Positions 1 through 38,077 are shown, counted from the stretch's first letter. The stretch is DNA of 39,924 nt from an uncultured Enterobacteriaceae bacterium (GCA_964576645.1 CAZNWR010000002.1:1-39924); one strand, 5' to 3'. Numbers and translations: made by a program. The notes: a model not told the origin generated them from the letters alone.

Positions 1-52
1 CCGGAAGTCAGCCGTATCGGTTGAGCAAGCCGGAACTCAGAAAATTGCCGTC

Positions 53-946: not shown

Positions 947-955
947 CGACGCATT

Positions 956-2074: not shown

Positions 2075-2111
2075 ATAAGAAAGGACCACGCCAGGGCTTA
2101 GCGGATTTTTC

Positions 2112-3167: not shown

Positions 3168-3253
3168 ACACGAGATGAACAATGATGTTGGTATTAATGG
3201 GACTCTTTCAGTGATCTCCCGGAGGTAAAGGTTGATCGCAAGAGACCGTTCCC

Positions 3254-4270: not shown

Positions 4271-4420
4271 ACTTCATGCACAGTCGCGGGACATCTGGCC
4301 ACGCGCACCTTGAAGGAGCGAACCGGTTTTCGATCCCGATACCCTGGCTGAAACAGCCTCGTACACCTATGCGCCGGAACACTGTAAATCGAATGCCCTT
4401 ACACAGGGTGATTTCCTGCA

Positions 4421-5566: not shown

Positions 5567-6702
5567 GCCGGCCTAAGGTATCTGTCGTCTTACCGACATA
5601 TAACGCCGAAGCGTATATACGCCAAACAATGGAATCGCTCGTGTCCCAGACCATGTCCGACATAGAAATCATTCCCGTAGATGATGGGTCTCCGGATGCT
5701 TGTGGGAAGATATTGGACGAATTCGCATCGATGGACAAACGCGTCAAACCCATCCATCAGGAAAATGGCGGATATGGCTCAGCCGTTAATTCCGGACTGG
5801 AACTGGCCTCTGGCGCTTTCATTGGAATAGTCGAAGCTGATGACTATGTCGAACCCGGGATGTTTGAAACCCTTTGGAATCTGGCTTCCCGCTTCGACAC
5901 TGATATTGCCAGATGCGGGTACAACGTGCTGACAAATGGAAGTGTCGCAGAGGTCGTTAGTCCCACCCCCCCTGAAAACGCGCCTTTCAACATAAGAGAG
6001 TTGCCTGAGTTTCTGGTCTCGCCCCCTGCGATTTGGTCTGCCATCTATCGGAAACAATTTCTGGAGAATCACGGGATCCGGGTGGTCGCGGACAAAGGGA
6101 TTTCCTATCAGGACGTTGACTTTTTTGTACGAACAACGATTCTCGCGGATAAACTCATTTGCACGATGACTCCTCTCTATAATTACAGACTGGACAACCC
6201 GTCCTCTTCCACCAACAGCGGGAAAAAAATCAACGACATCTTCGTAAGCTACCGGGCAACCGACAACTTTATCGAAAGTGCGTTAAGTAAATCAGACAAA
6301 ATTCGAGCATATTACACAAAGAGAAAAATATGTGACTTGCATTGGCATTTTCGCCGGCTGGGACGGTCGCCGGAGCAGCGGTATTATTTTGCCAACAAAG
6401 CCTCAAAATATCTGGAGCCAGCCGCCGGGGACGCTGCAGTTATAGCCCTGTTGAGTTCCAAACAGAAATTGTTTTTCTCCAGCATAACCAGGTATCCCCG
6501 CCTCTACACATTTTACAAGAACAACGAACCAGTTCTCGGTCTTCCGTCGAACTGGAACCAGAGGCGCCGATGGGGAAAGCTCCTCTATTTGTCGTTCGCA
6601 CACCCGGTTAAAGTCATCCTCAGGCTGGCCGCGCGGGTTTTCCATACAACACGGGAGGCGAAACATGACGCCGACACCGATCGCGAAGGTCATACAAATT
6701 GA
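5563..6702 (+). CDS. Family 2 glycosyltransferase
   Basis: 379 aa. KVSVVLPTYNAEAYIRQTMESLVSQTMSDIEIIPVDDGSPD and VEADDY. The GTG start overlaps the upstream stop (GTGA), so the genes are probably translationally coupled. Confidence 0.8.
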   Translation: MSRPKVSVVLPTYNAEAYIRQTMESLVSQTMSDIEIIPVDDGSPDACGKILDEFASMDKRVKPIHQENGGYGSAVNSGLELASGAFIGIVEADDYVEPGMFETLWNLASRFDTDIARCGYNVLTNGSVAEVVSPTPPENAPFNIRELPEFLVSPPAIWSAIYRKQFLENHGIRVVADKGISYQDVDFFVRTTILADKLICTMTPLYNYRLDNPSSSTNSGKKINDIFVSYRATDNFIESALSKSDKIRAYYTKRKICDLHWHFRRLGRSPEQRYYFANKASKYLEPAAGDAAVIALLSSKQKLFFSSITRYPRLYTFYKNNEPVLGLPSNWNQRRRWGKLLYLSFAHPVKVILRLAARVFHTTREAKHDADTDREGHTN

Positions 6703-6890
6703 AGCGGCTCATACACGGCTCCGGATGCGGCGGCAGGAATGCAGCAACGTCAGGTGAAGATTTCAGGGATCTGCAAGTATGGCAAACAGGCAGGTTATGG
6801 ATAGATATTCTGGATCCGGAGCTTTCCTGCGACTCGCTCCCTGTCCCTTATCCCACGGTGACTTTGCGCTAGCACCTCCCGTTCACTTCG

Positions 6891-8588
6891 ATGATTATTC
6901 GTAGTTTTCTCTCCTGCTTTCGCCTGCTAAACGCAAGACAGAAGCGGGACTACTTTATCGTTGTTGTTCTGTCGACACTGGCGTCGCTTACCGACATGCT
7001 TGGGATGATGGCCATAATCCCGGTGATTTCCGCTCTGGTGGACTATGACACGTCCGTGAGAAAGGGCTATCTGGTTTTCCTGTATCACCTGGCCGGAGAG
7101 CCAGAGAAGGCAGTATTTCTCGCGACACTGACCTTATGCGCCCTCGCCCTCGTATGGTTCAGCGGGGTCACCACCATGTCAGCGCTGTTCGCCAGCCAGA
7201 GGTTTTTCAAGCGAGTCAACGCGGATATTTCCGGGCGGGTATACCGTAGATACCTGTTTCAGCCGATTGAAGAATTCTATTCGAGGCCGTCCTCGGAATT
7301 TCTTCGAAATGTCAACGGCGTGAGTGAGCGAGTAGCATCGGGCGTGTTCGGTGCATCTACCATAATTCTGTCGCGGCTGATTCAGATTACGGTGATACTT
7401 ACAGCGCTGCTCTACGTAAATACTTTTGTTACCTGCGTTATCGTCGGCATCATATCGACCTGCTACCTGGCGATTTTTTTGGGTGTGAAGCCTAAGATCG
7501 TAAGGATTGCCGCTGAAAATTTTGCCGACACAAAACTGATCCAACAGCTTGCAATAGGAAGTTATCAAGGCTACCGGGGGATCACCGTTGACCAACAACT
7601 CGACCATTTTTCGTCACGATTTGACGATCTCAAAAAGGAGGCATCGAGGAAAGTCGCAAATATGGAGATTATCGGCGCCATCCCGAGAAATTTGATCGAG
7701 ATCACGGGCTTGACGTTGCTAATCGCCGCTTCCTATCTGATAGGCAGGACATCTCACGGCAGTCAGCATTTCGTCTTTGTAATGGGGCTTTTTGCAGTCG
7801 CAGCCTATAAGATCCTGCCTTCCGCGCAGCAATTGTACAACGCTTTAAACCGCCTTATGGCTTCTATGGTCGTTTACATGAAGGTGGAAGACGAATGGAA
7901 CGGTTTACCTGTAATCCAGCGCGTTCCGGCGGGTGGATCCCATATCGAAAGCTGCAGGCTCATTGAAATCGAAAATCTTTCATACAATATTGGCGACAAG
8001 CGTATTCTCAGCAACATTTGCATGAAGATCCCGCTTGTTGGAGTTATCCGCATAGCCGGGCCGTCAGGTATAGGGAAAAGCACCCTGCTGGAATTGATGG
8101 CGGGCCTGAGAAGACCGCAAAAGGGGGAGGTCTTCCTGGACGGCAGGCCCATGTCGAAGTTGAACCTCGGAAGTTGGTGGGCGTGTATATCCTACCTTTC
8201 CCAGGGTGCATACCTGTTCGAAGGCAGTATTCGTGAAAATATCGTGCTGCGAGAATTTTCGGTCGATCAGGAACGGCTTTTTGAAGTTGCGGATATATGC
8301 GGCTTGAATCTTCTTGACGGGTCAACCGGATTCGATCCGGAATTCCACGTTGCCGAGAATGGCTCGAATTTGTCGGGCGGCCAGAGGGGGCGTGTACTGC
8401 TGGCCAGGGCATTGTACAAAGACACCGGGATAGTATTTCTTGACGAGGCCTTTTCCGCCCTTGACGTTGGTGCGGCAAGAAAGATCCTGGAGAAGGTCGA
8501 AGCAGCCTTCCCCGGGCGCTGCATAATAGTCGTCAGCCACCGTGATGCTGAGTTACCTGAAGACGTAACGGAATATGTAATCAGCTAG
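6891..8588 (+). CDS. ABC exporter, fused permease + ATPase half-transporter (MsbA/PglK-type architecture)
   Basis: 565 aa. The N-terminal ~300 aa have about 6 hydrophobic segments. The C-terminal NBD has Walker A GPSGIGKST, signature LSGGQRGRV, Walker B IVFLDEAFSALD and H-loop VVSHR. Confidence 0.85.
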   Translation: MIIRSFLSCFRLLNARQKRDYFIVVVLSTLASLTDMLGMMAIIPVISALVDYDTSVRKGYLVFLYHLAGEPEKAVFLATLTLCALALVWFSGVTTMSALFASQRFFKRVNADISGRVYRRYLFQPIEEFYSRPSSEFLRNVNGVSERVASGVFGASTIILSRLIQITVILTALLYVNTFVTCVIVGIISTCYLAIFLGVKPKIVRIAAENFADTKLIQQLAIGSYQGYRGITVDQQLDHFSSRFDDLKKEASRKVANMEIIGAIPRNLIEITGLTLLIAASYLIGRTSHGSQHFVFVMGLFAVAAYKILPSAQQLYNALNRLMASMVVYMKVEDEWNGLPVIQRVPAGGSHIESCRLIEIENLSYNIGDKRILSNICMKIPLVGVIRIAGPSGIGKSTLLELMAGLRRPQKGEVFLDGRPMSKLNLGSWWACISYLSQGAYLFEGSIRENIVLREFSVDQERLFEVADICGLNLLDGSTGFDPEFHVAENGSNLSGGQRGRVLLARALYKDTGIVFLDEAFSALDVGAARKILEKVEAAFPGRCIIVVSHRDAELPEDVTEYVIS

Positions 8589-12789: not shown

Positions 12790-13653
12790 TCATTGACCAC
12801 CCCCGCGCTGATACATGAGCGCGGTGATCTGTTCGGACACCAATCCGACAAGAAACACCATGAAGGACGCCAGCAGCAGCAGCGCGCTCATGTTCGTGAA
12901 ACGGTCCTGGGTAAAGTATGTGTAGCCGTAATTGATGAATCCGAGTATCGCCAGCACAAGGCTAATCGGAAAGAAAATCTTCAACGGGGAGTAGAGGGTG
13001 CCAATGCGGAAAATGATCAAAATAAACCGCAGTCCGTCGCGCAGAGGCTTGATATGGCTGCGCCCAGCCCGCCGCGCAGCCTGGATGGGGACATATTGAA
13101 CGGGGTAGCCCGCACGGAAGAACGCCATGGTGATGGTGGTGGGATAGGAAAATCCGTTGGGCAACAGATGCAGAAACTCGCGGAACCTGGCAGTTTCCAC
13201 CGCCCGCAGGCCCGACGTCAGGTCAACGATGCGGTGCCCGGTGATCCAGCTCGACAATACATTGTAGAAAGCGTTGGCGAAGCGGCGAAACAGGTTCGCT
13301 TGGGAGTCAGTGCTGCGGGCTCCCACGACCATGGAGTAACCGTTCTCAATTTCCGCGCACAGGCGCGTCACATCATCCGGGGAATGCTGGCCGTCGGCAT
13401 CCATGAATACCGTCACCGCGCCGGATGCGGCGCGCGCACCGGTCTTTATCGCGGCACCGTTTCCCATGCAGTATGGATGCCTGATTACGGTAGCCCCCGC
13501 GCTCTCAGCCACACTGACCGTCGTATCACTGGAAGCATCATCCACGACAATAACCTCGCCTGCCGGGAACAATTGCTTTAAGCGGGGGAGGATGCGGGCC
13601 AGGCCATCAGCCTCGTCCCGGGCCGGAATGACAATGCTGAGCGTCCTATTCAT
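12790..13653 (-). CDS. GT2 with two C-terminal TM helices (GtrB/ArnC/DPM1-like polyprenyl-phosphate glycosyltransferase candidate)
   Basis: 287 aa. LSIVIPARDEADGL ... VIVVDDASSDTT ... VFMDADGQH. The C-terminus (LKIFFPISLVLAILGFINYGY ... ALLLLASFMVFLVGLVSEQI) has the two-helix anchor typical of Und-P/Dol-P sugar synthases. The upstream gene's 3' end overlaps this gene's start by 8 nt. Confidence 0.7.
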   Translation of the reverse strand: MNRTLSIVIPARDEADGLARILPRLKQLFPAGEVIVVDDASSDTTVSVAESAGATVIRHPYCMGNGAAIKTGARAASGAVTVFMDADGQHSPDDVTRLCAEIENGYSMVVGARSTDSQANLFRRFANAFYNVLSSWITGHRIVDLTSGLRAVETARFREFLHLLPNGFSYPTTITMAFFRAGYPVQYVPIQAARRAGRSHIKPLRDGLRFILIIFRIGTLYSPLKIFFPISLVLAILGFINYGYTYFTQDRFTNMSALLLLASFMVFLVGLVSEQITALMYQRGGGQ

Positions 13654-15628
13654 TGCCCTCTCGATTTAATCGATCCCCTGGAAATCGGGGCTCCGTTTCA
13701 CCGGCCCCGATGTCTTTATGCGGCTCGCGCTGTAATACTTTCAGTTGCCGCCTGAGCTTGTTCACTTTTTTTCTGTAGGCCAGGTACGCCACGGGATCCT
13801 TGTCCAGTTCCTTTCGCACGGCGGAATACGCTCTGGCGGACTCCTTTGGAAGCCGAAGCGCAAGACTGACCTCCAGAAGATAGACGCGCCGGTGAACGGT
13901 GGGTGATGCGTGCACCGCCTTGACCAGATTAGCATAACCCCGCGCCAGATCCCCGAAACGAAGTTCAAGCGTGGCGGCAAGTTCGTACAGGGCGCCTGCC
14001 CGGTTGCCCGCATGACGCGCCAGGGTCACGATCAGGTGTGCCAGCTCGTGATGATCTATAGGCGGACAGTCACCCGACGCGACCAGAGGGACAAGTGTCG
14101 CTATTTCTCCGATATTTTCGAAAACCTGGCGCGTGCCGGCCGCCGCCTTGCGATCCGCCGTCTGCCACGATTGATTGTCGATGGACTTGCCCAGCACACA
14201 GGCATTGACCGCTATACGTTTCAGTACCGGGTAAACCTGTTTCGGGAAATCCGACTCCATGACGTCCAGCAAGCGGAGTGCCGTATCCGTATCACCTGAA
14301 ACGAGCAGTCGATTTTCCAGGTTCATGAGCGCCCGCGGTGACTCCGGATGCCACTCCGCCATCAATTTCGCCTGCAGCAGCGGCTGCCTCCACAGCTGTA
14401 CATTCTGCCAGGTTACGGCTGTAACCATCACGCAGTAGCCGACTGCCGCTACAGCCACCGGCAGGCGCAGCGACTTGCGCTCCAGCAGCCGATGAACCAT
14501 CCACGCCAGCAGAAATACCACGCCCAGTGATGGCAGGTAGTTTCTGTGCTCGAAGTAGATGTCCAGATTCACGAAGGTAGACTCGATAACGTGCCCCCCG
14601 AAAAACCAGAGCACGGAAAAGCTGAACGCGGGAGCGCGCCTGCGCAGTCCGACAGCCGCACCGACCAGCAGAACTATGCCGAGGCAGGCGAACAGCGTGG
14701 TGGGTGGCGACAGCAGGCCGTGGGAGACGGCGAAGTCATCGTGGAAAAGGCCGAAGGCGGCCGGGTGCGGAAATGCCAGGTTACGCAGGTAGACCAGGAG
14801 AACGCGACCCTCGGATATCAGCTTCTGCCAGGCCGAATAGGGCCGCGAGACGAAACTGTGAAGGGTAGGGCCGAGGTCGAGCAGGAAATAGCCGACTATC
14901 GCCAGCAACGGCAAAAGTAGAAAAACGCTGCGCCAGATACGGTACTTAGGAAGGCGTTGTGTGCCCCTCAGCAGCGTGACATCGGTGATGAGCGCGTATA
15001 GGGGCAAGAGGGCGCCGTTCTCCTTGGAGAAGACCGCCAATGCGGTACCCAGCACAATGGACAGGCTCATCACCAGGTAACATCGACGAGCACTCCAGCG
15101 GGGAAAATTCGACCGGCCCAGCATGAACCCGCAGACGCCGGCCATGATGAACAGGGCGGAAAGCTCGGTCATGCGCTGTACGACGTAGAGAACGGTATCC
15201 GTCAGCATGGGCTGCAGCGCCCACAAACCGGCGACCGCCAGCGCAAAGGCAGTTCCGCGCGTGCCGGGAATTGAAAGTGCTTTGGCGGCCAACCGGGCGA
15301 AACAGTAAATCAGTGCGGCCGTCAGCAAATGCAGCAGGAGATTCACGAACTTGAAGGCAAATGCATCGTACGGCCAGGCCGCGTGCTGCAGGGCGAAGGT
15401 GGCCAGGGACAGGGGTCGGCCCGTCGGCCCCGCTACGCCCCCGAATACATACCAGGAATAGCCCGACGTCCTGATCTGCTCAAGCGGGCCGAGGTTGAAA
15501 AAATCGTCGAGAAAATACCCGCTGTGCAGACCGGGCCAGTACAAGCCGGCCACCGCGCACAGCAACAACGCCAATCCGAGAAGCCCGGCATGGCGCTCGA
15601 ACCGCGGGTCAATAATGCGAAATTTCAC
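13646..15628 (-). CDS. TMTC-like polytopic membrane protein with C-terminal TPR domain (PMT_2/GT-C candidate)
   Basis: 660 aa, GTG start. YFLDDFFNLGPLEQI ... GRPLSLATFALQH ... FKFVNLLLHLLTAALIY is the N-terminal signature of bacterial TMTC-type proteins. About 10 hydrophobic segments are followed by TPR-like repeats. Confidence 0.7.
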   Translation of the reverse strand: MKFRIIDPRFERHAGLLGLALLLCAVAGLYWPGLHSGYFLDDFFNLGPLEQIRTSGYSWYVFGGVAGPTGRPLSLATFALQHAAWPYDAFAFKFVNLLLHLLTAALIYCFARLAAKALSIPGTRGTAFALAVAGLWALQPMLTDTVLYVVQRMTELSALFIMAGVCGFMLGRSNFPRWSARRCYLVMSLSIVLGTALAVFSKENGALLPLYALITDVTLLRGTQRLPKYRIWRSVFLLLPLLAIVGYFLLDLGPTLHSFVSRPYSAWQKLISEGRVLLVYLRNLAFPHPAAFGLFHDDFAVSHGLLSPPTTLFACLGIVLLVGAAVGLRRRAPAFSFSVLWFFGGHVIESTFVNLDIYFEHRNYLPSLGVVFLLAWMVHRLLERKSLRLPVAVAAVGYCVMVTAVTWQNVQLWRQPLLQAKLMAEWHPESPRALMNLENRLLVSGDTDTALRLLDVMESDFPKQVYPVLKRIAVNACVLGKSIDNQSWQTADRKAAAGTRQVFENIGEIATLVPLVASGDCPPIDHHELAHLIVTLARHAGNRAGALYELAATLELRFGDLARGYANLVKAVHASPTVHRRVYLLEVSLALRLPKESARAYSAVRKELDKDPVAYLAYRKKVNKLRRQLKVLQREPHKDIGAGETEPRFPGDRLNREGNE

Positions 15629-15720
15629 TGGTTGAGATATTGCGATCGCCTGGAAGCGACCCCTTGATCGGGGTCAATTACCTGACTGCCATCGCTGCGC
15701 GAAGTTCGCAGCCGGTACAC

Positions 15721-15749
15721 AAAACAAAAAAGGCCACTTTACGTGGCCT
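15721..15749 (-). terminator. Rho-independent terminator downstream of pilin gene 2
   Basis: The minus strand reads AGGCCAC-GTAAA-GTGGCCT followed by TTTTTGTTTT, 24 nt after the pilin stop. Confidence 0.7.
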
Positions 15750-15772
15750 TCATCAAAATGTCCCGCCGAATA

Positions 15773-16234
15773 CTACTTGCAGGTGGCGGGTAAGTATTTG
15801 GATCCAATCTCGGTGGCGGGCACGTTGGTGACCTGCCTGCCACATGCCCAGGTCTTGCCACCGTCTCCAGTTTCCAGGGAAAAGGTCTTGCCCTGGATTC
15901 CTTTAGCGGCACCTATCGTCTTGAATGTGGCAATTACCATTATCGTCGCACCTGACGCATTGCCGGTTGTAATGGATGTCACGTAATGACCCGACGACGT
16001 TCCCCCCAGGTCCGCGAGATTGACGGAATCAAAGCTGCCGTTATTCAAAAAATAATCGGTCAGCATGGTCTTGTACTGGCCCGTCAACTGAATCGCCTCG
16101 GTAACCTCTGACCTGGCCGTATAGTCCTGGTAAGAGGGGATGGCGACGGCAGCCAGTATCCCGATGATGGCCACCACGATCATCAGCTCTATCAATGTGA
16201 AGCCGTGACTACCTTGCCTTCTGTGAACGCGCAT
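15773..16234 (-). CDS. pilA: Type IVa pilin (second, divergent copy) with an 11-residue basic leader
   Basis: 153 aa from ATG 16234 (RBS GGGGAGAA upstream). [44 protein letters not shown], with a C-terminal Cys...Cys loop ([25 protein letters not shown]). The longer ORF-track start (16498) overlaps pilin 1 and is rejected. Confidence 0.85.
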
Positions 16235-16322
16235 ATGTGTTCTCCCCACTTTCTGAGGCCCCGGCATCCGGGGATGAGCCATCTCGCCGGGCGAAACCCC
16301 TGCCCCGCGCTTCCGGTAGTTC

Positions 16323-16354
16323 AAAAAAAAAGGCCGCCGTTTTGAGCAGCGGCC
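16323..16354 (-). terminator. Strong Rho-independent terminator between the two pilin genes
   Basis: The minus strand reads GGCCGCUG-loop-CGGCGGCC followed by nine T. It is also flanked by T6 on the + strand, so it is bidirectional in form. Confidence 0.85.
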
Positions 16355-16419
16355 TTTTTTGGCATCCCAGCCGGGAATTACTCCATCAGCAAGTACATTT
16401 AAAACCGGAAGCCTGCCTG

Positions 16420-16869
16420 TTACTTGCAGGCACCGGGGGAGAACTTGCTCTGGATGTCGCTGTAAGTACCAGCCGTACCACCCTTTCCGCAGCTCCACGT
16501 CTTGCCGCCATCCGTCGTTGCGACCGCAAACGTGTCATTCTGGATAGCTGCCGCTACGCCGCTCGACTTGAATTTCGCTACGACGGCAATGGTGCTTCCG
16601 TTGCCGGCGGTAAACGTGATACCCGACACGTACTTGCCGGCCGTTGTACCACCCAGATTCGACAAGCTCGCACTGGCGAAATTGCCGTTATCGGCAAAGA
16701 ACTCGGCCAGGGACGTCTTGAACTGGGAGGTGAGGGACACCGCCTCAGAAACCTGGGCGCGCGCCGTGTAGTCCTGATAGGAGGGGATGGCGACGGCGGC
16801 CAGAATACCGATAATGGCCACCACGATCATCAACTCAATCAGGGTAAAACCTTGCTGGAGTGTCTTCAT
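16420..16869 (-). CDS. pilA: Type IVa major pilin
   Basis: 149 aa. [44 protein letters not shown], with a C-terminal disulfide loop ([25 protein letters not shown]). RBS AAGGAGAG lies 7 nt upstream. Confidence 0.9.
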
Positions 16870-16963
16870 TCTTACTCTCCTTAAGACTATTATTTACCGT
16901 TGAAAAAAAGCGCTTTATTTCACTCAGTGCCCCAAAACATCGACGGGGTCACGGACTGTAACA

Positions 16964-16979
16964 AGCAGCTTTCGTGCCA
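16964..16979 (-). promoter_or_regulatory. Sigma54 (-24/-12) promoter of pilin gene 1
   Basis: The minus strand reads TGGCAC-GAAAG-CTGCT, against the consensus TGGCAC-N5-TTGCW. GG and GC have correct spacing, about 95 nt upstream of the ATG. A sigma54 activator (pilR) lies in the same array. Confidence 0.7.
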
Positions 16980-17087
16980 ACCCTTGTTTTTTGTGACACG
17001 GTTCACGCAGGATGCCCTTCTGACCCCTTATTCTTCCTGACTCGCCCCTGCGGCTGCCCGCAGCACTGACCCTGAAAGAGGAAAAGC

Positions 17088-17102
17088 TGACAATTTTTGT
17101 CA
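17088..17102. promoter_or_regulatory. Perfect palindrome TGACAA-TTT-TTGTCA, candidate enhancer (PilR?) site
   Basis: 6-bp inverted repeat located about 110-125 nt upstream of the -24 element, a typical bEBP enhancer distance. Assigning PilR as the binder is inference only. Confidence 0.3.
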
Positions 17103-17121
17103 CCGCCGGGGACGTCAGGTG

Positions 17122-19134
17122 TCATGGGGCGGCTTCGAGATCGTGCAGCTGGGTGGCGGCCGGATTCCGTGGGTCGGGCCAGATGGCCAGCGCAGTTTTG
17201 AAGTGCTGCCGGGCGCGGGCGGTTTCGCCCTCCTGCAATGCGATTTCACCCGCCAGGCGCGCGGGAGTCGCCAGGTCGCGTTTGGTCAATGCCTGTGAAC
17301 GCAGCCGAATTGCCGCTTCCAGTTGCCTGCGCACCAGCTTCGGACGGGTACGCACCAGCCCCTTGTCGATGAGCCTTTCCGCCACCATCAAGCTGCCGAG
17401 ATATTGATCGCAGGCACCGGGGTGCGGTTTCGCCGCAATGCGGACAAAGTCCCGGCTATGTACGCCCAGCCATAGACGGCAATAATCCTTGCGCAACAGC
17501 AGGGCATCCATACGCTCCCAGGGTTCCCTGGGAAAGGGGCGCGCCGCGATTCGCTGAAAAAAGTTCACAATTCGAGGATCGGCCACGACGCGCTGTTCCG
17601 CACCGCGGTGGGGATCCACCTTGAAATACAGCCCATAGTCATCCGCGGTGAAGCTGTTGGGAAAATCGTTGGCGTAAAAAACCGGGCGGGCCGAGGCACT
17701 GATAAACCGGTCGAACAATGACTTCACGTCTGCCGCTGACAGCAGATATGGCCGATACATGCGGCCTTTGAAGAAAAAGCGCCTGCCACTTTGCAGTTCG
17801 ATATCCGGCCTGATACCGAGCACCCGGTGCAGGTAGCCCACGGGCCCGTTTATGGAGTCGGCATTGGCGTAGAACACCGCACCCACGGGCAGGGAACGTA
17901 GCAGCGCAAGTCCGTTTTCCTGCGCCCAGTGATCGTGGCCGCGGTAGTTTTCAGATACGTTCGCCAGCCAGGTTGTTCCTGCCAGAACCATCACCAGTCC
18001 CAAGCGAACGTAAGCCTTCCCCACGCGCTCACGCAGTCGCGGCTCCAACCACTCGCTGACATTCGCCGCCCCCAGAGCCAGCCACAGTGCACAGATCCCA
18101 TAAGGCAGGTGCGGATACACGCGGAAGGTTTCCCTGTGCAGCAGGTCGTAATTGAACCCCAGTAGGCCGATCAGCAGAAAGGTACCGCCCAGGTAACCGG
18201 CGAGCAGGCCCCAGCATTCCCAGCGCCCCCATTCCCGCCATTGCCGCACCAGGCCCAACAGCACCAGTACGCCGCCCACCGGTCCGAATTGGTTTACCGT
18301 CTGCTCCAGCACGAATTTTCCGAACTGCAGCTTGTCCCACCAGCCCGCGCTCAGGTCCCGGTCCACGCTCCGGTAGCCTTCGCGACTCACGTAAAGCCAG
18401 AAGTCATGCCAGTTGGAAATGGGACCGTAATAACAGAATCCCGGCACGGCATGGGTCCGGTAAATCAGCCAGAGATACGGTGTCAGTCCGGCCGCCAGTC
18501 CCGCCGCCGCGGCCGGCCAGTGGCGCCACAGCTGCCGGCGAGCCGGCCAAAGCACCAGCACCAGCGCCGGCGTGGACAGGATCATCAGCGGCCAGTGGTT
18601 GCTCAGTGACAGACCGTAGAGCAGGGCGACCACCAGTATCCGGCGTCCGGTCACTTCATCCGGTGCACGCGCCCCGCGCACGGCCAGATACAACAGTAGA
18701 AAGAACAGCAGCGCATTCAGGCTATAAACCTTGGCAATGATCGCCTGCGACCAGAACACCGCGGAGAACCCGAATGAAAGCGCCGCCAGAGTGGCAAACA
18801 GGCGCTGGCGCAGCAACAAATCAGCCAGACGCCAAAGTGCAATACAGGCAAGTGCGCCGAACAAACCGCTCAGCGCGTGTACCCGAAACGCCACCGTGCC
18901 CACCGGAACGAGGGTGGCCAGATGAGCGAACACCATAAATAAGGGATATCCCGGCGGATGTGCGATCCCGTTGAAGTACGCGGCCGTGACAAAATAGCCG
19001 TCGTCGCCCAGCACTACCGAATTGGTAGTGGACCACAGGTAACAACCGAATACCGCCAGGAATACGAGCGACTGATGAACACGGTCGTACGCAAGCGGCC
19101 CCGGATCGTACGTCAGCCATCTGAACCGCTTCAT
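17122..19134 (-). CDS. DUF2723/TMEM260-like polytopic membrane protein with C-terminal TPR-like tail (GT-C candidate), paralogue 1
   Basis: 670 aa. VVLGDDGYFVTAAYFNGIAHPPGYPLFMVFAHLA follows TM1, which is the hallmark DUF2723 motif. More than 10 hydrophobic segments are followed by a soluble C-terminal half ending in TPR-like helices. Confidence 0.75.
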   Translation of the reverse strand: MKRFRWLTYDPGPLAYDRVHQSLVFLAVFGCYLWSTTNSVVLGDDGYFVTAAYFNGIAHPPGYPLFMVFAHLATLVPVGTVAFRVHALSGLFGALACIALWRLADLLLRQRLFATLAALSFGFSAVFWSQAIIAKVYSLNALLFFLLLYLAVRGARAPDEVTGRRILVVALLYGLSLSNHWPLMILSTPALVLVLWPARRQLWRHWPAAAAGLAAGLTPYLWLIYRTHAVPGFCYYGPISNWHDFWLYVSREGYRSVDRDLSAGWWDKLQFGKFVLEQTVNQFGPVGGVLVLLGLVRQWREWGRWECWGLLAGYLGGTFLLIGLLGFNYDLLHRETFRVYPHLPYGICALWLALGAANVSEWLEPRLRERVGKAYVRLGLVMVLAGTTWLANVSENYRGHDHWAQENGLALLRSLPVGAVFYANADSINGPVGYLHRVLGIRPDIELQSGRRFFFKGRMYRPYLLSAADVKSLFDRFISASARPVFYANDFPNSFTADDYGLYFKVDPHRGAEQRVVADPRIVNFFQRIAARPFPREPWERMDALLLRKDYCRLWLGVHSRDFVRIAAKPHPGACDQYLGSLMVAERLIDKGLVRTRPKLVRRQLEAAIRLRSQALTKRDLATPARLAGEIALQEGETARARQHFKTALAIWPDPRNPAATQLHDLEAAP

Positions 19135-19280
19135 GATTTACGACTTGCACCGGGCCGGATTATCCATAAACGGCCAGACAGGATCCGGGCGGGTGACAGC
19201 GGGTATGGCCTATCGCGAGCACGAAGACCATGCCCGCCGGCAGGACCCGCTCGCCATTTGCTTCCGCCTTTCATGAATAA

Positions 19281-21113
19281 TCAAAGTTTACGGGCGCCGT
19301 TGCGCGCGGCAACTGTCCTCCGCATTGCAAACCGTAGAAGTATGCCAAACGCCAGCAGAAACGACGCGAGGCTCAGGTAATCGGCGAGACGCTGCCACCA
19401 GGGAATCGCAAACGGAAATTTTCGGTAGTGGGTAAATGCCAGCACGTCATTGCGCTGGTCCATGCGGAAATGATCACCCGGCCGGCATTGGTTGGACTTG
19501 CCGAACACGTAGCAGGCCGGATTGAACATCGCCACTTGGCCCGTTCGCGGATTCACGACCGGTCCGAGACGTACTTCGCGACGGGGGAACGTTTCCAGTC
19601 TGTACCCGAATATGGGCTGGTAGCAGGGCACCGGACTGGTCCCGTCGACAAAGCGGTCGTTCAGTGCCCTGCCGATCTGGTCAAAGGGCTGCTTTACACG
19701 CGTAACGGGCGGAACGTCCCCGCTCTTCCGTACACTGAAGTAACTGCGCGTGACCGGGCGCGGATCGTAGAGCAGAACACGGTTCGGCACCACATAACCC
19801 TGGAGGTTGACGGCGACAACTCCCGCGATCCCGGCGGCTGCAAGCCCTGACCTGAGCGCTGCTGAATCGACCCTGTCCAACACCATGGCCGAAATCAGAA
19901 TAACGACCGGAATGTCCGCGGCGATCCAGCGCAGGAACAGGAAGGTGCTCTCCAGGTATGGCAACTTTTTGAACAGCGCATCCAGACCGGGACTATGAAT
20001 GTTCATGATCACCGGCAACAGACATACCCCAACCAGGATCGCCAGCCGCAGCAGTGTAAATGCGCTGAGCCGGATCCGGCGCGTATCTCCTGCGCCGTGT
20101 CGCACCGCCAGCACCATTACCGCCGCCAGAAACACAAATACCGGCGCCGGCGTCACGCTGTACTGAAACTCGTGGAGTTCCACGAAATAGTTGGTGTGCA
20201 CAATCAGCCCGGGACGCGGAATGTAAGTACCTGCTGAAAACAGCGAATGCAGGACCACCAGGAAGGAGGTCCTGAAGTCCCTGAAACCCGGCACCGGGTA
20301 CAGGTCCCGGGGGAAGTGCGAGAGGAAAGCCATGGCCGGGACCAGCTTGAAGGCGGCCAGGCACAGGCTGAATGTCACGGCAGCCGCAAAGCACGGCCAG
20401 AAAGCGGTACGGCGCCCGCCGTGCAGCTCCGCCAGAACCCATATCCCCACCACACCCAGAAGTGACGGCCCGTAAATCACCGCACCACCCGACAGCAGCA
20501 GGTACGCCAGCATCAGCGCCGCCAACACCGCCCCCGCAACGGCTTTCCACATACGGAACCGATCCCCGGCGGGCAGCGGCGACAGCAGGCAAAGTGCAAT
20601 CGCGGGCACCAGCATGAAGGAATGAAACGTCAGGTGACCCGCCAGCATGCGATTGATATAGAAACTGTTGAACAGAAAACACGCGGCCGCAAACAGGGAC
20701 GTCGCCAGAGAGAGGTGAAAGCGGATCCGGCACAGCGCAAAAAAACCCCAGAAACCGGCCGCGGCGAACAGCACCACCGTCAGAAAGACGCTGCTCCGAG
20801 GGTCGGCCAGCAGCGTCAGGACCTGCGGTACCGAGTAGTAGAGATTCTGGGGATTCGGCACGAACGGCAGGCCCGCGCAAATGGCCGGCGTGAACCAGGG
20901 CACGGCCCAGGGACCGTTGTGCAGAAACCAGAAATACCCATTGAGCAGCGCCGGTAGAAAATACCCAAAATCCGCAGCCAGATAGTGTTCGGCAGGGGCG
21001 ATATATAGATGCGTGTTGTATATGAAGACCAACAGCAATATGAGGAATACAAACAGGCAGGTGGCCAAAGGCAGTTGTGGATCCGCCAGGATCGTGGGCC
21101 GGTCAATTTTCAT
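19281..21113 (-). CDS. Unclassified polytopic membrane protein (about 12 TM + periplasmic domain + terminal TM), tandem copy 1
   Basis: 610 aa. Codons ~48-583 are nucleotide-identical to the adjacent gene. The motif DFGYFLPALLNGYFWFLHNGPWAVPWFTPAICAGLPFVPNPQN follows TM1. I recognised no family motif, so the GT-C-like call rests on architecture and context only. Confidence 0.7.
   Translation of the reverse strand: MKIDRPTILADPQLPLATCLFVFLILLLVFIYNTHLYIAPAEHYLAADFGYFLPALLNGYFWFLHNGPWAVPWFTPAICAGLPFVPNPQNLYYSVPQVLTLLADPRSSVFLTVVLFAAAGFWGFFALCRIRFHLSLATSLFAAACFLFNSFYINRMLAGHLTFHSFMLVPAIALCLLSPLPAGDRFRMWKAVAGAVLAALMLAYLLLSGGAVIYGPSLLGVVGIWVLAELHGGRRTAFWPCFAAAVTFSLCLAAFKLVPAMAFLSHFPRDLYPVPGFRDFRTSFLVVLHSLFSAGTYIPRPGLIVHTNYFVELHEFQYSVTPAPVFVFLAAVMVLAVRHGAGDTRRIRLSAFTLLRLAILVGVCLLPVIMNIHSPGLDALFKKLPYLESTFLFLRWIAADIPVVILISAMVLDRVDSAALRSGLAAAGIAGVVAVNLQGYVVPNRVLLYDPRPVTRSYFSVRKSGDVPPVTRVKQPFDQIGRALNDRFVDGTSPVPCYQPIFGYRLETFPRREVRLGPVVNPRTGQVAMFNPACYVFGKSNQCRPGDHFRMDQRNDVLAFTHYRKFPFAIPWWQRLADYLSLASFLLAFGILLRFAMRRTVAARNGARKL
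19366..20974. repeat. Tandem direct repeat, unit 1 (1609 nt, apparently 100% identical to 21220-22828)
   Basis: Offset is 1854 nt. All nested six-frame ORFs translate identically in the two units. I checked the boundaries base by base (mismatches at 19365/21219 and 20975/22829). Confidence 0.9.
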
Positions 21114-21140
21114 CGGTGCTCTCGATGGTCCGGGCTCTCG

Positions 21141-22967
21141 CTAACCGGTGCTATGCTTCGCGTTGCTTGCTGCGCGTCGTAAAACCAAGAGCAGTACAGT
21201 AAACGCGAGCGCAAATGAAGCGAGGCTCAGGTAATCGGCGAGACGCTGCCACCAGGGAATCGCAAACGGAAATTTTCGGTAGTGGGTAAATGCCAGCACG
21301 TCATTGCGCTGGTCCATGCGGAAATGATCACCCGGCCGGCATTGGTTGGACTTGCCGAACACGTAGCAGGCCGGATTGAACATCGCCACTTGGCCCGTTC
21401 GCGGATTCACGACCGGTCCGAGACGTACTTCGCGACGGGGGAACGTTTCCAGTCTGTACCCGAATATGGGCTGGTAGCAGGGCACCGGACTGGTCCCGTC
21501 GACAAAGCGGTCGTTCAGTGCCCTGCCGATCTGGTCAAAGGGCTGCTTTACACGCGTAACGGGCGGAACGTCCCCGCTCTTCCGTACACTGAAGTAACTG
21601 CGCGTGACCGGGCGCGGATCGTAGAGCAGAACACGGTTCGGCACCACATAACCCTGGAGGTTGACGGCGACAACTCCCGCGATCCCGGCGGCTGCAAGCC
21701 CTGACCTGAGCGCTGCTGAATCGACCCTGTCCAACACCATGGCCGAAATCAGAATAACGACCGGAATGTCCGCGGCGATCCAGCGCAGGAACAGGAAGGT
21801 GCTCTCCAGGTATGGCAACTTTTTGAACAGCGCATCCAGACCGGGACTATGAATGTTCATGATCACCGGCAACAGACATACCCCAACCAGGATCGCCAGC
21901 CGCAGCAGTGTAAATGCGCTGAGCCGGATCCGGCGCGTATCTCCTGCGCCGTGTCGCACCGCCAGCACCATTACCGCCGCCAGAAACACAAATACCGGCG
22001 CCGGCGTCACGCTGTACTGAAACTCGTGGAGTTCCACGAAATAGTTGGTGTGCACAATCAGCCCGGGACGCGGAATGTAAGTACCTGCTGAAAACAGCGA
22101 ATGCAGGACCACCAGGAAGGAGGTCCTGAAGTCCCTGAAACCCGGCACCGGGTACAGGTCCCGGGGGAAGTGCGAGAGGAAAGCCATGGCCGGGACCAGC
22201 TTGAAGGCGGCCAGGCACAGGCTGAATGTCACGGCAGCCGCAAAGCACGGCCAGAAAGCGGTACGGCGCCCGCCGTGCAGCTCCGCCAGAACCCATATCC
22301 CCACCACACCCAGAAGTGACGGCCCGTAAATCACCGCACCACCCGACAGCAGCAGGTACGCCAGCATCAGCGCCGCCAACACCGCCCCCGCAACGGCTTT
22401 CCACATACGGAACCGATCCCCGGCGGGCAGCGGCGACAGCAGGCAAAGTGCAATCGCGGGCACCAGCATGAAGGAATGAAACGTCAGGTGACCCGCCAGC
22501 ATGCGATTGATATAGAAACTGTTGAACAGAAAACACGCGGCCGCAAACAGGGACGTCGCCAGAGAGAGGTGAAAGCGGATCCGGCACAGCGCAAAAAAAC
22601 CCCAGAAACCGGCCGCGGCGAACAGCACCACCGTCAGAAAGACGCTGCTCCGAGGGTCGGCCAGCAGCGTCAGGACCTGCGGTACCGAGTAGTAGAGATT
22701 CTGGGGATTCGGCACGAACGGCAGGCCCGCGCAAATGGCCGGCGTGAACCAGGGCACGGCCCAGGGACCGTTGTGCAGAAACCAGAAATACCCATTGAGC
22801 AGCGCCGGTAGAAAATACCCAAAATCCGTGCCAAGTTTGGGTGTCGACGAGGACAGGTACCAATGGACATTGTTAACGAATACGCCCATGAGCACGATAA
22901 ACACAAGGAGGCAGATCGCGGCCGGCAGTTTCCAACCCCGCCGGACAATGAAGCGGGGGACAACCAT
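21141..22967 (-). CDS. Unclassified polytopic membrane protein, tandem copy 2
   Basis: 608 aa from ATG 22967. I chose this start because MVVPRFIVRRGWKLPAAICLLVFIVLMGVF aligns with the copy 1 N-terminus and lies exactly one repeat period (1854 nt) from the copy 1 start. The ORF-track start at 23126 would add a Cys-rich 53-aa extension. Confidence 0.65.
   Translation of the reverse strand: MVVPRFIVRRGWKLPAAICLLVFIVLMGVFVNNVHWYLSSSTPKLGTDFGYFLPALLNGYFWFLHNGPWAVPWFTPAICAGLPFVPNPQNLYYSVPQVLTLLADPRSSVFLTVVLFAAAGFWGFFALCRIRFHLSLATSLFAAACFLFNSFYINRMLAGHLTFHSFMLVPAIALCLLSPLPAGDRFRMWKAVAGAVLAALMLAYLLLSGGAVIYGPSLLGVVGIWVLAELHGGRRTAFWPCFAAAVTFSLCLAAFKLVPAMAFLSHFPRDLYPVPGFRDFRTSFLVVLHSLFSAGTYIPRPGLIVHTNYFVELHEFQYSVTPAPVFVFLAAVMVLAVRHGAGDTRRIRLSAFTLLRLAILVGVCLLPVIMNIHSPGLDALFKKLPYLESTFLFLRWIAADIPVVILISAMVLDRVDSAALRSGLAAAGIAGVVAVNLQGYVVPNRVLLYDPRPVTRSYFSVRKSGDVPPVTRVKQPFDQIGRALNDRFVDGTSPVPCYQPIFGYRLETFPRREVRLGPVVNPRTGQVAMFNPACYVFGKSNQCRPGDHFRMDQRNDVLAFTHYRKFPFAIPWWQRLADYLSLASFALAFTVLLLVLRRAASNAKHSTG
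21220..22828. repeat. Tandem direct repeat, unit 2
   Basis: See unit 1. Confidence 0.9.
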
Positions 22968-23037
22968 CAGAAATGCACCCCGGCCCCGAGATTCATCGGG
23001 GCAGTATTGGAGAAAATCGCAGATCCCGCCATGTTTG

Positions 23038-23053
23038 CGCACGGACAGCGCCA
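23038..23053 (-). promoter_or_regulatory. Weak candidate sigma54 promoter upstream of tandem copy 2
   Basis: The minus strand reads TGGCGC-TGTCC-GTGCG, with GG and GC at the correct -24/-12 spacing about 70 nt upstream of ATG 22967. The -12 region is off consensus, and a chance match is possible in GC-rich DNA. Confidence 0.3.
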
Positions 23054-23264
23054 ATGGGCAGGCACATTTGTCTCGCGCTTGACGTATCCCGAACAGGCCG
23101 CAACACTGGTCTAAACCTGCCGGCACCGCCCGAATGGAAATTGATTGCGACTTTCATAAAAAGTTACGGTACCCGATCAACGCCGCCCTGTCCCGTCCAG
23201 CCGTCTCCCGGATCGCAGCCCACCGGCGCCGCCGCCCCACAGGCACATACATCCGAAGTGATAA

Positions 23265-25316
23265 TTACTTGTTTGAATCCCCCGTACCCGTTTCCCTGAA
23301 CAGGCGGTAAGCGGGATTCTTATAAGAGTTCCAGATTGAGATGGATTGGGCAAAGTATCTATGCGCCGACTTTCGGTGCCCGAGCGCAAGTTCGGCGCGC
23401 CCCGTTTGCGTTTCCAACCCGGCACGGTCATCGACCGTCACCGCCTGGTCGGCCTGGCGCCGCGCATCCTGCAGAAGCTTCAGCACGGCGGCGGCATCCG
23501 GATGCGGCTGGTTCAGTCTCGCGGTCGCGCGCTCCAGTAGCCCATGATAATCGCTGCAGCGAAGTGCCAGCATCCGGGTCAACCGTCGCTGTTCAAGCGG
23601 AGACGGCGCGTGGATTTTCAAGGCGGACAGAAGATGGCAATACATGTCAGTTAGCTGGCGATAGTGTATCAATTCGCTCAGATCCCGGGGCGGCCCCGCG
23701 CGGAACATATTATCAAAATAGGCCTGGATCCTGGGGGTCAGAATCGCCACCTCGTCTGTGACCGGATGATTTCTGTAGACGCGCCAATACAATCCGTAAA
23801 AGACACTGCCGCCGCTGTGCGGCAGTTCCATGGCAAAGTAGACCGGGGATTTTGTACGCGCCAGGAATTTGTCCACCGCGGCGTGAACCGTAGCCTTGCT
23901 CAGATTGTAGGCGCTGTAGAGTCTGTTCTTAAACAGCTGGCCCCTTACAACGTACATGCTAACGTCGGGACGTACGTGTTCGATGCGGTGCAGGTAGCCA
24001 ACGGGACCGACTACATAATCTCCGGAAGCAAAAAATACGGCGCCCCTGGGCAGCGTGTCCAGAACGGTACGGGCATAATCTTCGGCCCAGTGGTCCCGGG
24101 CCTGGTAGTTGTTGCCGGCATTCGCCAACCAGGTCGTCCCCACCAGCAACAGCACCGCTCCCCAGCGCAGGTATTCCGTCCTCGCCCACCCCTCCAATTT
24201 CCCCTCCAACCAGCCGATCATCACCTGCGCCCCCAGCCCCAGCCACAGCGCGCATATCCCGTATGACAAAACCGGATATACCCGGAACACATTCCGGTGC
24301 AGCAAGTCATAGTCGAAACCCAGCAATCCGATCAAAACGAAAGTTCCGCCCAGGTAGCCCAGCACCAGACCCCAACTCTCACAGCGCCGCCACCGTCTCC
24401 ACTGCCATACCAGCCCCAGCAGCATCGGCGCCCACCCCAGCGGGCCGAACTGCTCCAGGGTCTGCCTCAGCACGTAGCCGCCGAACCGCAACCTGTCCCA
24501 CCAGCCCGCGCCTATATCATGGTCCACCGTCCGATAGCCCTCGCGGCTCACGTAGAACCAGAAGTCGTGCCAATTCGAGATCGGTCCGTAGAAGCTGATT
24601 TCCGAAACACGTGAACGCACCACCATCCACAGATATGGCGTCAGCCCCAATGCGACAGCGGCGATCAGCAGCGGCCAGCGCTTGAAGAATTCCTTGCGCT
24701 TCGGCCACAACACCAGCGCCAGCGCAGGGGTGGACAGCACTATCAACGGCCAATGGTTACTGAGAGAAACCCCGTACAACAGCGCGATCCAATATGGTGT
24801 GCGGCTTCGGTTTGCAATCGCAACATCCCGACCGTAGTTCACGCACATCAGCAACAGCGAGAAGAACAACAGTGCATTCAGTGAATACACCTCGGCGACG
24901 ATGGACTGCGACCAGAAAACATCCGACCAGGCGAATGCGAGTGCGGGGATATAGGCCAGGGAAGATGACCGAAGCAGGCGCCGGGCAAGAACCCACAATA
25001 TGGCGCTTGCACCGGCGGCAAATAAAACGCTGAGCGCATGCACCCGGTACGCGACCGAACCTATCGGAACGAGCGTAGCCAGGTGCGCGAGTGCGGTATA
25101 AAGTGGGTAGCCGGGAGGGTGAGCAACGCCGTTGAAAAAAGCTTCGAGGACGAAGTAACCATCGTCATCAACCATTATTCCGCGCGGTGCGCTGGCCAGA
25201 CCATTGGCAAGAACCAGACCGAACACCACAAGCAGATGCGGGAAATATCGAGTGCGATCCCTCGCATCCAAACGGCTTCTCAGGATCACCGTCTGCTTAC
25301 ACCGCCTCTCAAGCAA
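23265..25316 (-). CDS. DUF2723/TMEM260-like polytopic membrane protein with TPR-like tail, paralogue 2
   Basis: About 683 aa. IMVDDDGYFVLEAFFNGVAHPPGYPLYTALAHLA. Colinear with 17122-19134 throughout. The proposed TTG start at 25316 is preceded by GGAAGGAG and overlaps the upstream stop by 8 nt. GTG 25289 is an alternative. The ORF-track ATG at 25439 would overlap the upstream gene by 131 nt. Confidence 0.7.
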   Translation of the reverse strand: MLERRCKQTVILRSRLDARDRTRYFPHLLVVFGLVLANGLASAPRGIMVDDDGYFVLEAFFNGVAHPPGYPLYTALAHLATLVPIGSVAYRVHALSVLFAAGASAILWVLARRLLRSSSLAYIPALAFAWSDVFWSQSIVAEVYSLNALLFFSLLLMCVNYGRDVAIANRSRTPYWIALLYGVSLSNHWPLIVLSTPALALVLWPKRKEFFKRWPLLIAAVALGLTPYLWMVVRSRVSEISFYGPISNWHDFWFYVSREGYRTVDHDIGAGWWDRLRFGGYVLRQTLEQFGPLGWAPMLLGLVWQWRRWRRCESWGLVLGYLGGTFVLIGLLGFDYDLLHRNVFRVYPVLSYGICALWLGLGAQVMIGWLEGKLEGWARTEYLRWGAVLLLVGTTWLANAGNNYQARDHWAEDYARTVLDTLPRGAVFFASGDYVVGPVGYLHRIEHVRPDVSMYVVRGQLFKNRLYSAYNLSKATVHAAVDKFLARTKSPVYFAMELPHSGGSVFYGLYWRVYRNHPVTDEVAILTPRIQAYFDNMFRAGPPRDLSELIHYRQLTDMYCHLLSALKIHAPSPLEQRRLTRMLALRCSDYHGLLERATARLNQPHPDAAAVLKLLQDARRQADQAVTVDDRAGLETQTGRAELALGHRKSAHRYFAQSISIWNSYKNPAYRLFRETGTGDSNK

Positions 25317-36429: not shown

Positions 36430-36527
36430 ATGCTTCAGATGGCCGGCGGCTAGTTTAATTGGCGCCGGATTGCACTTGGGTCATCGTCCGGAACGGATAT
36501 GACCGGGGATCCACGGGGGAGATCACA

Positions 36528-37961: not shown

Positions 37962-37970
37962 GTAGGCGGT

Positions 37971-37996
37971 GTGCGCGGTGACCGTGCACCGCGCAC
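37971..37996 (+). terminator. GC-rich hairpin downstream of gdh (possible terminator, no U-tract)
   Basis: GTGCGCGGTG-ACCGTG-CACCGCGCAC, a 10-bp perfect stem beginning 10 nt after the stop. Confidence 0.4.
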
Positions 37997-38014
37997 CTTG
38001 CACCATGAACCGAA

Positions 38015-38042
38015 CTTGATCTGTAGCAATTCGCCCCAATGT
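38015..38042 (+). promoter_or_regulatory. Sigma32 (heat-shock) type promoter of clpB
   Basis: CTTGAT-N13-CCCCAATGT, against the consensus CTTGAA-N13-15-CCCCATNT, about 35 nt upstream of the clpB ATG. Confidence 0.55.
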
Positions 38043-38077
38043 TAGGGAAGGCATAATTTGATCCAGGTACTTCATCC

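Follow-up and report, generated by a model that had tools for sequence, protein, structure and literature searches.

A tandem pair of putative GT-C-fold membrane glycosyltransferase genes with an identical core and diverged ends: probable gene conversion in a type IV pilin locus

Introduction

How can two neighbouring genes share a core without a single difference when both their ends are only about half identical? The question is raised by a contig of an uncultured Enterobacteriaceae bacterium (GCA_964576645.1, CAZNWR010000002.1:1-39924), of which the whole stretch of 39,924 nucleotides (nt) was analyzed and is called here the window. Its minus strand carries two adjacent paralogous genes, X2 (upstream) and X1 (downstream), flanked by two TMEM260-like genes, A2 and A1, and followed by two type IV pilin genes. 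X2 and X1 are probably a real tandem pair of old paralogues with a GT-C fold, the core of which has been overwritten by interlocus gene conversion, i.e., by concerted evolution. The two copies are certainly near-identical, and chances are about even that they are exactly identical in the real chromosome.

The exact repeat and its edges

A base-by-base self-comparison at an offset of 1854 nt returns an unbroken run of 1609 nt without any mismatch between positions 19366-20974 and 21220-22828, and every position (1609/1609) bears out the perfect match and the period claimed in a preliminary description of this stretch. A separate repeat search lists this pair as well, cut off at 300 nt. A 1.6-kb exact repeat cannot arise by chance. 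Outside the run, identity drops at once on both sides to 0.2-0.6 in 30-nt windows, and no further long repeat is found in the window except at the 5' ends of the two pilin genes. The pair comprises the following segments:

21141-22967, minus strand: X2, the upstream paralogue, 608 residues from the ATG at 22967 (MVVPRF), in an open reading frame (ORF) that extends to a GTG at 23126; P0017 is the product called by NCBI
19281-21113, minus strand: X1, the downstream paralogue, an ORF of 610 residues
22829-22967, minus strand: X2 head (N-terminal tail and first transmembrane helix), 52% nt identity with the X1 head; also joined to A2 and to the core in the independent contig L001 described below
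21220-22828, minus strand: X2 copy of the identical core, from the offset comparison
22000-22086, minus strand: island site in X2 (87 nt; X1 equivalent 20146-20232)
20975-21219, minus strand: unique junction between the cores (245 nt), made up of the X2 tail (21141-21219), the spacer (21114-21140) and the X1 head (20975-21113)
19366-20974, minus strand: X1 copy of the identical core, from codon 47 position 2 to codon 583 position 2
19281-19365, minus strand: X1 tail (last transmembrane helix and basic C-terminus), 51% nt identity with the X2 tail and 62% with that of contig L057 described below

The core makes up the middle 88% of the gene; its translation begins with the invariant Asp48, within the first periplasmic loop, and stops where the last transmembrane helix begins. 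The X1 and X2 proteins are identical over residues 48-586 and differ exactly in two places, the cytoplasmic N-terminal tail with the first transmembrane helix, and the C-terminal anchor helix with its basic tail. Both are full length (the family-typical length is ~600-620 residues), and the X1 ATG lies 27 nt past the X2 stop codon, with a Shine-Dalgarno-like GAGAG motif 5 nt upstream. The plus-strand ORFs quoted in the preliminary description (19428-19850 and others) are antisense ORFs inside the X genes, and not genes.

The ends, described earlier as half identical, are indeed so. The heads align without gaps over their first 141 nt with 73 identical positions (binomial p ~4e-10 against a chance match of 27%), and the 3' tails share 40 of 78. 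By codon position, the heads agree at 21, 30 and 20 of 46 first, second and third positions, respectively, the second positions being the best conserved, as expected for a constrained coding sequence. Judging from their sequence, the heads are homologous and coding, with third positions near saturation; their near-saturation at synonymous sites follows from a third-position identity of only 20/46. A tract identical at 100% thus lies between a head at 52% and a tail at 51%, both homologous, with the abrupt boundaries expected of interlocus gene conversion. The GC content at third codon positions, examined for a trace of biased conversion, does not differ meaningfully between the core, the termini and the neighboring genes.

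Relatives of the pair and the orthologue comparison

The genome scan reports 53 related X loci, most of them in Proteobacteria, SAR324, Myxococcota and Nitrospinota. None of these 53 loci has more than one X gene, and the pair is therefore lineage-specific. The scan returned no genome of the same species, the best match and next full-length relative being 41% identical, and the metagenome scan for independent copies of the locus returned one contig only, L001. Closer relatives were found by searches with the flanking A genes.

The closest of these, L057 (Logan SRR31012000, a 2.4-kb contig, positions 1-2420), contains an A1 orthologue (75% identity in amino acids, 77.7% in nt) preceded by the last 81 codons of an X gene, which ends 15 nt upstream of A1, compared with 146 nt in the window. 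The core end of L057 matches the window core at 137 of 167 positions (82%), including 37 of 55 third positions; third-position identity is thus 67% between the orthologue cores versus 43% between the paralogue heads. In the tail of 79 nt, 49 positions of L057 agree with X1 and 43 with X2, and 40 agree between X1 and X2. Paralogue cores (100%) are therefore far closer than orthologue cores (82%), and the relation is inverted in the tails, weakly, in one short fragment. Because the paralogue cores exceed the orthologue cores while the tails follow orthology, the pattern is a signature of conversion, and this single fragment of 246 nt supports a pair older than the species split with a younger core. 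A comparison with related loci was suggested in the preliminary description; in it, the core of L057 is more diverged from the window core than the paralogue cores are from each other, and the copy number in the 53 loci is one throughout. Of the L057 contig itself, it may be noted that it starts 167 nt inside the region repeated in the window, and that its A1 orthologue is followed by a different gene, starting MTHDPTTTERQDGERPLISIVAPA, in place of the pilin.

A second contig, L059 (Logan SRR15167846, positions 1-6952, aligned with window 16825-29933 at ~71% nt identity), encodes PilS, PilR, a GT2/GtrA protein and the A2 orthologue, directly followed by a pilin. The X2-X1-A1 block (17122-22967) is absent, which implies an insertion or a deletion of this block between the lineages. 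Elsewhere, a Thiodictyon metagenome-assembled genome (MAG), D14_bin-1308, carries two unlinked X-family paralogues (L016 and L020) that are 60% identical; duplication of X thus occurs elsewhere, without homogenization. An N-terminally truncated family member, P0021, considered as a possible break at the repeat edge, is 38% identical to X1 and is uninformative.

An independent contig with a diverged island

L001 is contig Ga0307440_1010317 (3412 nt) of the Joint Genome Institute (JGI) metagenome 3300031367 and the sole outside member of the 90% cluster of X1. It corresponds to window positions 24546-21141, i.e., part of A2, the stretch between A2 and X2, and the head, core and tail of X2. It departs from the window in two places only, a dense patch at 22038-22086 and one single-nucleotide polymorphism (SNP) at 22000. 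Since the flanks are identical over hundreds of nt, the gene copy to which the patch belongs must match the window core in all other respects. It is in frame and homologous to the window sequence, with 45% nt identity and 6 additional nt, which is the same level of divergence as that of the heads and tails. The patch codes for AGMYYPHVHMVVRDLITVEVEL in L001 and for AGTYIPRPGLIVH--TNYFVEL in the window. In nucleotides, the island contains ACTTACATTCCGCGTCCCGGGCTGATTGTGCAC in the window variant and ATGTATTATCCCCATGTTCATATGGTTGTGCGTGACCTGATT in the L001 variant, of which CATGTTCATATGGTTGTGCG is an example of a specific k-mer. The island encodes residues ~295-312, in the periplasmic loop between the invariant residues R269/G276 and E315, and represents the most variable stretch of this loop.

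Two other origins of the island were considered and rejected. A local inversion is contradicted by the lack of similarity between the patch and the reverse complement of the window patch, the L001 sequence being a diverged allele in frame. Mutagenesis by a diversity-generating retroelement does not fit either, since all four bases differ and a 6-nt indel is present, and a scan of 29 ORFs reports no reverse-transcriptase match. Neither the window, searched with as many as 3 mismatches allowed, nor any of the fetched loci contains a silent cassette or donor for the L001 island.

The ancestral sequence of one paralogue is the sole plausible source of the patch. Either a sister strain keeps an unconverted relic of X2, and the strain of the window was converted from X1 over a tract of at least 87 nt, or the organism of the window has the relic as well, and the assembler merged the variants and walked one graph edge twice. 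We hold these two readings to be roughly even. Both support conversion, and they differ only on whether its last step is biological.

L001 ends on the last base of the X2 stop codon (window 21141), which lies 79 nt beyond the edge of the repeat and 27 nt short of the start of X1. This end point may reflect a coverage gap, or could reflect a structural difference between strains directly after X2.

Origin of the identical core

According to the favored explanation, non-reciprocal recombination of the RecA type between the adjacent direct repeats would have overwritten 1609 nt. Conversion tracts would end where usable homology ends, which would leave the first and last transmembrane helices at their ancient divergence of ~50%, and the 87-nt loop island would have escaped, at least in a sister strain. 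If so, the ancestral cores would have been more alike than the ends, or a rare first event would have seeded the later ones; cores more similar from the outset are plausible, since conservation within the family is lowest in the ends and in the island. The analysis shows the exact repeat, the near-saturated termini, the predicted fold, the gene context, the island in L001 and the excess of paralogue over orthologue identity in the core; the RecA-type mechanism, the direction of transfer, the donor substrate of the enzyme and its pilin target are what we infer from the whole. The preliminary description had likewise proposed a recent homogenization by gene conversion. Its first half stands, in that near-saturated third positions mark the ends as old and L057 indicates a much younger core, while the L001 island makes a recent homogenization to perfection inseparable from an effect of assembly. 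That description had further proposed a selection for copies that differ only in their terminal helices, a claim that lacks direct support: tracts may simply end with homology, and L001 suggests a third difference, in a periplasmic loop.

Several points weigh against gene conversion as told here. The independent sequence covers neither X1 nor the X2-X1 junction beyond the X2 stop codon, and of the junction it confirms 21141-21219 only; copy number and exact identity are those of the assembled contig. The orthologue comparison draws on one short contig, which contributes 167 nt for the core and 79 nt for the tail, and in which the preference of the tail for X1 (49 versus 43 of 79) is weak alone. 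Conversion of the RecA type is hard to start at the divergence of the termini, and the neighbors A1 and A2 (48% identity in amino acids) show no converted tract at all. Finally, with a next full-length relative at 41%, there is no close genome to date or polarize the events.

What is most open to challenge is the perfection of the match. The pair may be real and near-identical, with one graph edge traversed twice by the assembler after bubble popping, so that X2 would really carry the L001 island and possibly scattered SNPs; we regard this as a serious prospect, somewhat short of an even chance, and it contests only the word "perfect", not conversion. Assemblers of the metaSPAdes type can collapse short bulges regardless of similarity and traverse simple loops, which would yield exactly such a picture, and a de Bruijn assembler that walks a repeat edge twice necessarily writes out two identical copies. 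The window, 39.9 kb long, is a contig assembled from an uncultured organism, and L001 matches it everywhere else over 3.4 kb, yet has a diverged island in the X2 core. Two paralogues are the simplest source of both variants in one population, and the island has diverged (45%, with an indel) as far as the termini have, which is what a remnant of the original X2 should show. On the other hand, with long accurate reads the identity would be real, bubble arms of equal coverage with 33 differences are kept by some assemblers, which merge by similarity, and a bubble left unresolved would normally break the contig. The path of L001 is also unphased across 740-780 nt of repeat, and the island may therefore be a strain allele and not a difference between the copies.

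Two other accounts touch the pair itself. That the duplication is an artefact, a single X gene in a chimeric or falsely duplicated contig, was the alternative left by the preliminary description, and we find it hardly credible. It is true that X1 and the X2-X1 junction occur in one assembly only, that no X1 fragment was found in other public contigs, and that none of the other loci has a second copy. However, the 245-nt junction is unique and continuous, linking the X2 tail, the 27-nt spacer and the X1 head, and the reading frame runs unbroken from each head through the core into each tail, so that both genes are intact, typical of the family in length, and bounded by their own diverged termini. 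An X1-type tail stands beside A1 in L057, and an X2 head, core and tail are found in L001; both sets of ends are thus real and both need a core, and a single-copy organism would need chimeric reads to give such a contig. Somewhat less remote, and still improbable, is a recent tandem duplication of the whole gene followed by replacement of both ends of one copy by a foreign allele or an exchanged module. The modules of this locus do move, as the absence of the X2-X1-A1 block between the A2 orthologue and the pilin in L059 and the different context of the X1-A1 pair in L057 indicate. Such a history would nevertheless take two separate events, both of which would have to hit the borders of the conserved region precisely and preserve the frame, it leaves the internal L001 island unexplained, and a mosaic made in this way would be in effect a homologous replacement. 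Gene conversion between old paralogues remains the favored explanation.

Whatever produced it, a direct repeat of 1.6 kb should delete by unequal exchange, giving a chimera with the X2 head and the X1 tail, the geometry of which had been correctly given in the preliminary description. The persistence of both copies hints that both are needed. This hint is the sole support, and an indirect one, for the proposed selection, and no observation singles out the terminal helices as the difference selected for.

The X family and its predicted fold

The X proteins belong to an unnamed family that is nonetheless widespread: of the 1.84 billion cluster representatives searched with a profile, 817 match at E <= 1e-30 and 3771 at E <= 1e-3, counted as clusters at 50% identity. 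Naming X1 and X2 by sequence failed, as Pfam, NCBIfam (E <= 0.01) and a PDB profile search are all empty, and the Pfam domains of four unusually long family members (658 to 1300 residues) are uninformative. Unlike the neighbors A1 and A2, X returns no match to the TMEM260-like family PF11028 (E <= 0.01).

The AlphaFold2 model of X1, computed from a 17-sequence alignment (predicted local distance difference test, pLDDT, 83; predicted template-modelling score, pTM, 0.88), is polytopic with ~12 membrane helices. Hydropathy and charge agree with an N-inside polytopic GT-C topology, with 0 lysine or arginine residues in loop 39-104 and a basic C-terminus. In a Foldseek search against the PDB, GT-C enzymes make up nine of the ten best matches and also ranks 12 and 15, among them AglB (3wak), AftD (6w98), Pmt4 (9i5k), ArnT (5ezm) and ALG9 (9s6u). 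The probabilities are 0.96-1.00, but the TM-scores are only 0.33-0.44, with E-values of 6e-4 to 0.1; the predicted model thus indicates a similarity to GT-C enzymes at the fold level.

The first outside loop after the first transmembrane helix is the usual site of the GT-C catalytic acid. At this place X has the motif G-x-D-[YF]-[SG]-Y-F-L-P, the aspartate of which, D48, is invariant in 17 of 17 family members and opens the identical core as its first residue; it provides the conserved acidic residue of a GT-C enzyme as a single Asp, with no DDx/DxD pair. The long periplasmic loop (residues 266-322) contains the invariant R269, G276 and E315, and residues 439-571 form a periplasmic domain with Cys, followed by the final transmembrane anchor. 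Taken with the context of the genes, the predicted fold suggests that X1 and X2 are GT-C-fold membrane glycosyltransferases. Judged by fold and context only, X would most likely take a sugar from a polyprenyl-phosphate carrier and attach it to an acceptor in the periplasm, probably a pilin or a pilin-linked glycan.

The pilin locus around the pair

In the order of the minus strand, the locus encodes PilS, PilR, a GT2/GtrA protein, A2, X2, X1, A1, two pilins and a 660-residue polytopic protein, followed by GT2 and GT4 genes:

27770-29377, minus strand: PilS (neighborhood annotation)
26449-27765, minus strand: PilR (neighborhood annotation)
25309-26400, minus strand: protein with GT2 and GtrA domains (PF00535 4.5e-27, PF04138 1.6e-20)
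23265-25439, minus strand: A2, a TMEM260-like (DUF2723/GT117) GT-C protein with a C-terminus resembling tetratricopeptide repeats (TPR) (PF11028 6.5e-25)
17122-19134, minus strand: A1, a second TMEM260-like GT-C protein (PF11028 3.9e-28; TMEM260 structure 9rql at 7.6e-25)
16420-16869, minus strand: type IV pilin gene 1, 149 residues, from ORF and sequence; terminator-like hairpin at 16350-16333
15773-16234, minus strand: type IV pilin gene 2, ~153 residues from an internal Met (Pfam Pilin 8e-18, N_methyl 2.5e-9); terminator-like hairpin at 15751-15729
13646-15628, minus strand: 660-residue polytopic protein with FLDDFF near the N-terminus and a helical C-terminal half, directly downstream of pilin gene 2

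From its domains, the GT2/GtrA protein is likely a polyprenyl-phosphate-sugar synthase that supplies the lipid-linked donor. The true start of A2 is probably downstream of 25439. The structure matched by A1, 9rql, is the solved structure of the TMEM260 O-mannosyltransferase. In contrast to X1 and X2, A1 and A2 share no identical or converted tract. Their nearest outside relatives differ (75% for A1, 57% for A2), and the histories of A1 and A2 may be separate. The N-terminal coding ends of the two pilin genes are near-identical (79 nt at 88.6%; 172 nt at 74%), and three gene types, the pilins, the TMEM260-like genes and X, are thus each paired in the locus. A scan for promoters and terminators over 15500-26600 gives counts at the level of shuffled sequence, and only the two hairpins that follow the pilins look meaningful.

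We infer from fold and context that this is a type IV pilin glycosylation locus, of which the product of pilin gene 1 is the likely target. Among the 53 related loci, a GT2 gene lies within the fetched region in ~20, often directly beside X, and pilin genes lie within 10 kb of X in ~11. One locus of a deltaproteobacterial MAG (L019) has the same gene set, with PilR, a pilin, a PMT_2/TPR protein, a GT2 protein, a TMEM260-like gene and X. The 660-residue protein downstream of pilin gene 2 was tried as a third X paralogue and rejected, since it has no significant similarity to X; it also returns no Pfam match below 0.01 (with a marginal DUF6867 at 0.01), no NCBIfam match and no significant PDB match.

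Other parts of the window and of the population are of note. A contig of a second environmental sample (L056, JGI 3300032133) corresponds to window 16451-17586 and is 97.8% identical over the 3' end of A1 and pilin gene 1, and population variants of the locus therefore exist. The stretch at ~2000-8000 has a GC content of 45-51%, versus 55-62% elsewhere, and contains sulfotransferase and GT2 genes, an ABC exporter and an unassigned 338-residue ORF; possibly this island for glycan synthesis was gained by horizontal transfer. At the right end, the minus-strand ORFs 36450-38075, 38441-39004 and 39125-39778 (541, 187 and 217 residues) return no Pfam match at 1e-5.

Comparison with known systems

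The embC-embA-embB genes of mycobacteria encode tandem paralogues of GT-C arabinosyltransferases that use polyprenyl-phosphate sugars. As in the X pair, these are adjacent and co-oriented GT-C paralogues, and the AftD fold is among the Foldseek matches of X. In contrast, the Emb paralogues have diverged throughout and have no identical core, and no sequence homology with X is detected. A second point of comparison is offered by pilE/pilS and opa of Neisseria, in which cassette-type gene conversion produces surface variation. The likeness resides in short diverged tracts swapped between homologous pilus or surface genes, and the L001 island resembles such a mini-cassette. However, both X copies are complete and presumably expressed, no silent cassettes are found in the window and the fetched loci, and the X locus shows no sign of a dedicated mechanism or of high-frequency switching.

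Gene conversion of bacterial duplicates is documented for tufA/tufB, and, among tandem pairs, for mtrA-1/mtrA-2 and fla (PMC6053082), and cases of concerted evolution are those of Lathe & Bork 2001 and Wang et al. 2015, as cited in that article. The X pair shares with tuf, mtrA and fla paralogues that are far closer within a genome than orthologues are, abrupt tract ends, and a non-reciprocal recombination as the presumed route. It differs from them in that the middle 88% of the gene is homogenized between two ancient coding ends, and in that the copies are adjacent direct repeats 245 nt apart. X is moreover an uncharacterized membrane enzyme, with a single orthologous fragment for comparison.

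Closest in context is TfpW, the GT-C pilin arabinosyltransferase of Pseudomonas aeruginosa group IV, which possesses 11 transmembrane segments and a periplasmic TPR domain and is encoded immediately downstream of pilA (bioRxiv 10.1101/2020.04.19.049825). Similar to TfpW, X is a putative GT-C enzyme whose gene stands in a pilin locus and whose first periplasmic loop bears an acidic motif, accompanied by a GtrA-like component and by genes for lipid-linked sugars. In contrast, X is devoid of TPR, with no Pfam match and a model that is not TPR-like, and instead has its Cys-containing periplasmic domain and C-terminal transmembrane anchor; it also lies upstream of the pilins, with A1 in between. 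X is therefore not classed as a TfpW, the TPR domain and the TfpW position both being missing. Position and architecture fit the 660-residue gene better than X, and by analogy this gene is possibly TfpW-like, i.e., a GT-C enzyme with TPR.

Significance

The X pair is a further example of a known process and not a categorically new one. What stands out is that the homogenized tract is partial, tandem and sharply bounded, in an uncharacterized GT-C family tied to pilin loci. The most striking feature, exact identity, may be technical: perfect identity of tandem repeats in a metagenome contig may be made by the assembler and is not evidence of recency. If the identity is real, the pair would illustrate cleanly how concerted evolution can act in nature on part of a bacterial gene, with tract edges visible to the nucleotide and possibly an unconverted relic in a sister strain; a direct repeat of this length should also be lost easily, unless the cell needs both copies.

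A bolder view, which we offer as an unlikely one, takes the pair as a modular specificity system. Conversion would keep the catalytic bodies identical, and selection would hold the first and last transmembrane helices and the loop of residues ~295-312 apart; the helices might pair A2 with X2 and X1 with A1, the loop might set the acceptor, i.e., which pilin is modified, and its occasional conversion, of which the window and L001 would be an instance, would switch the specificity of glycosylation within a population, possibly under pressure from phages. If true, this would be a low-frequency surface variation that acts on the modifying enzyme and not on the pilin. As for the family as a whole, its unnamed GT-C-fold members are candidates for a new chemistry of protein or pilin glycosylation.

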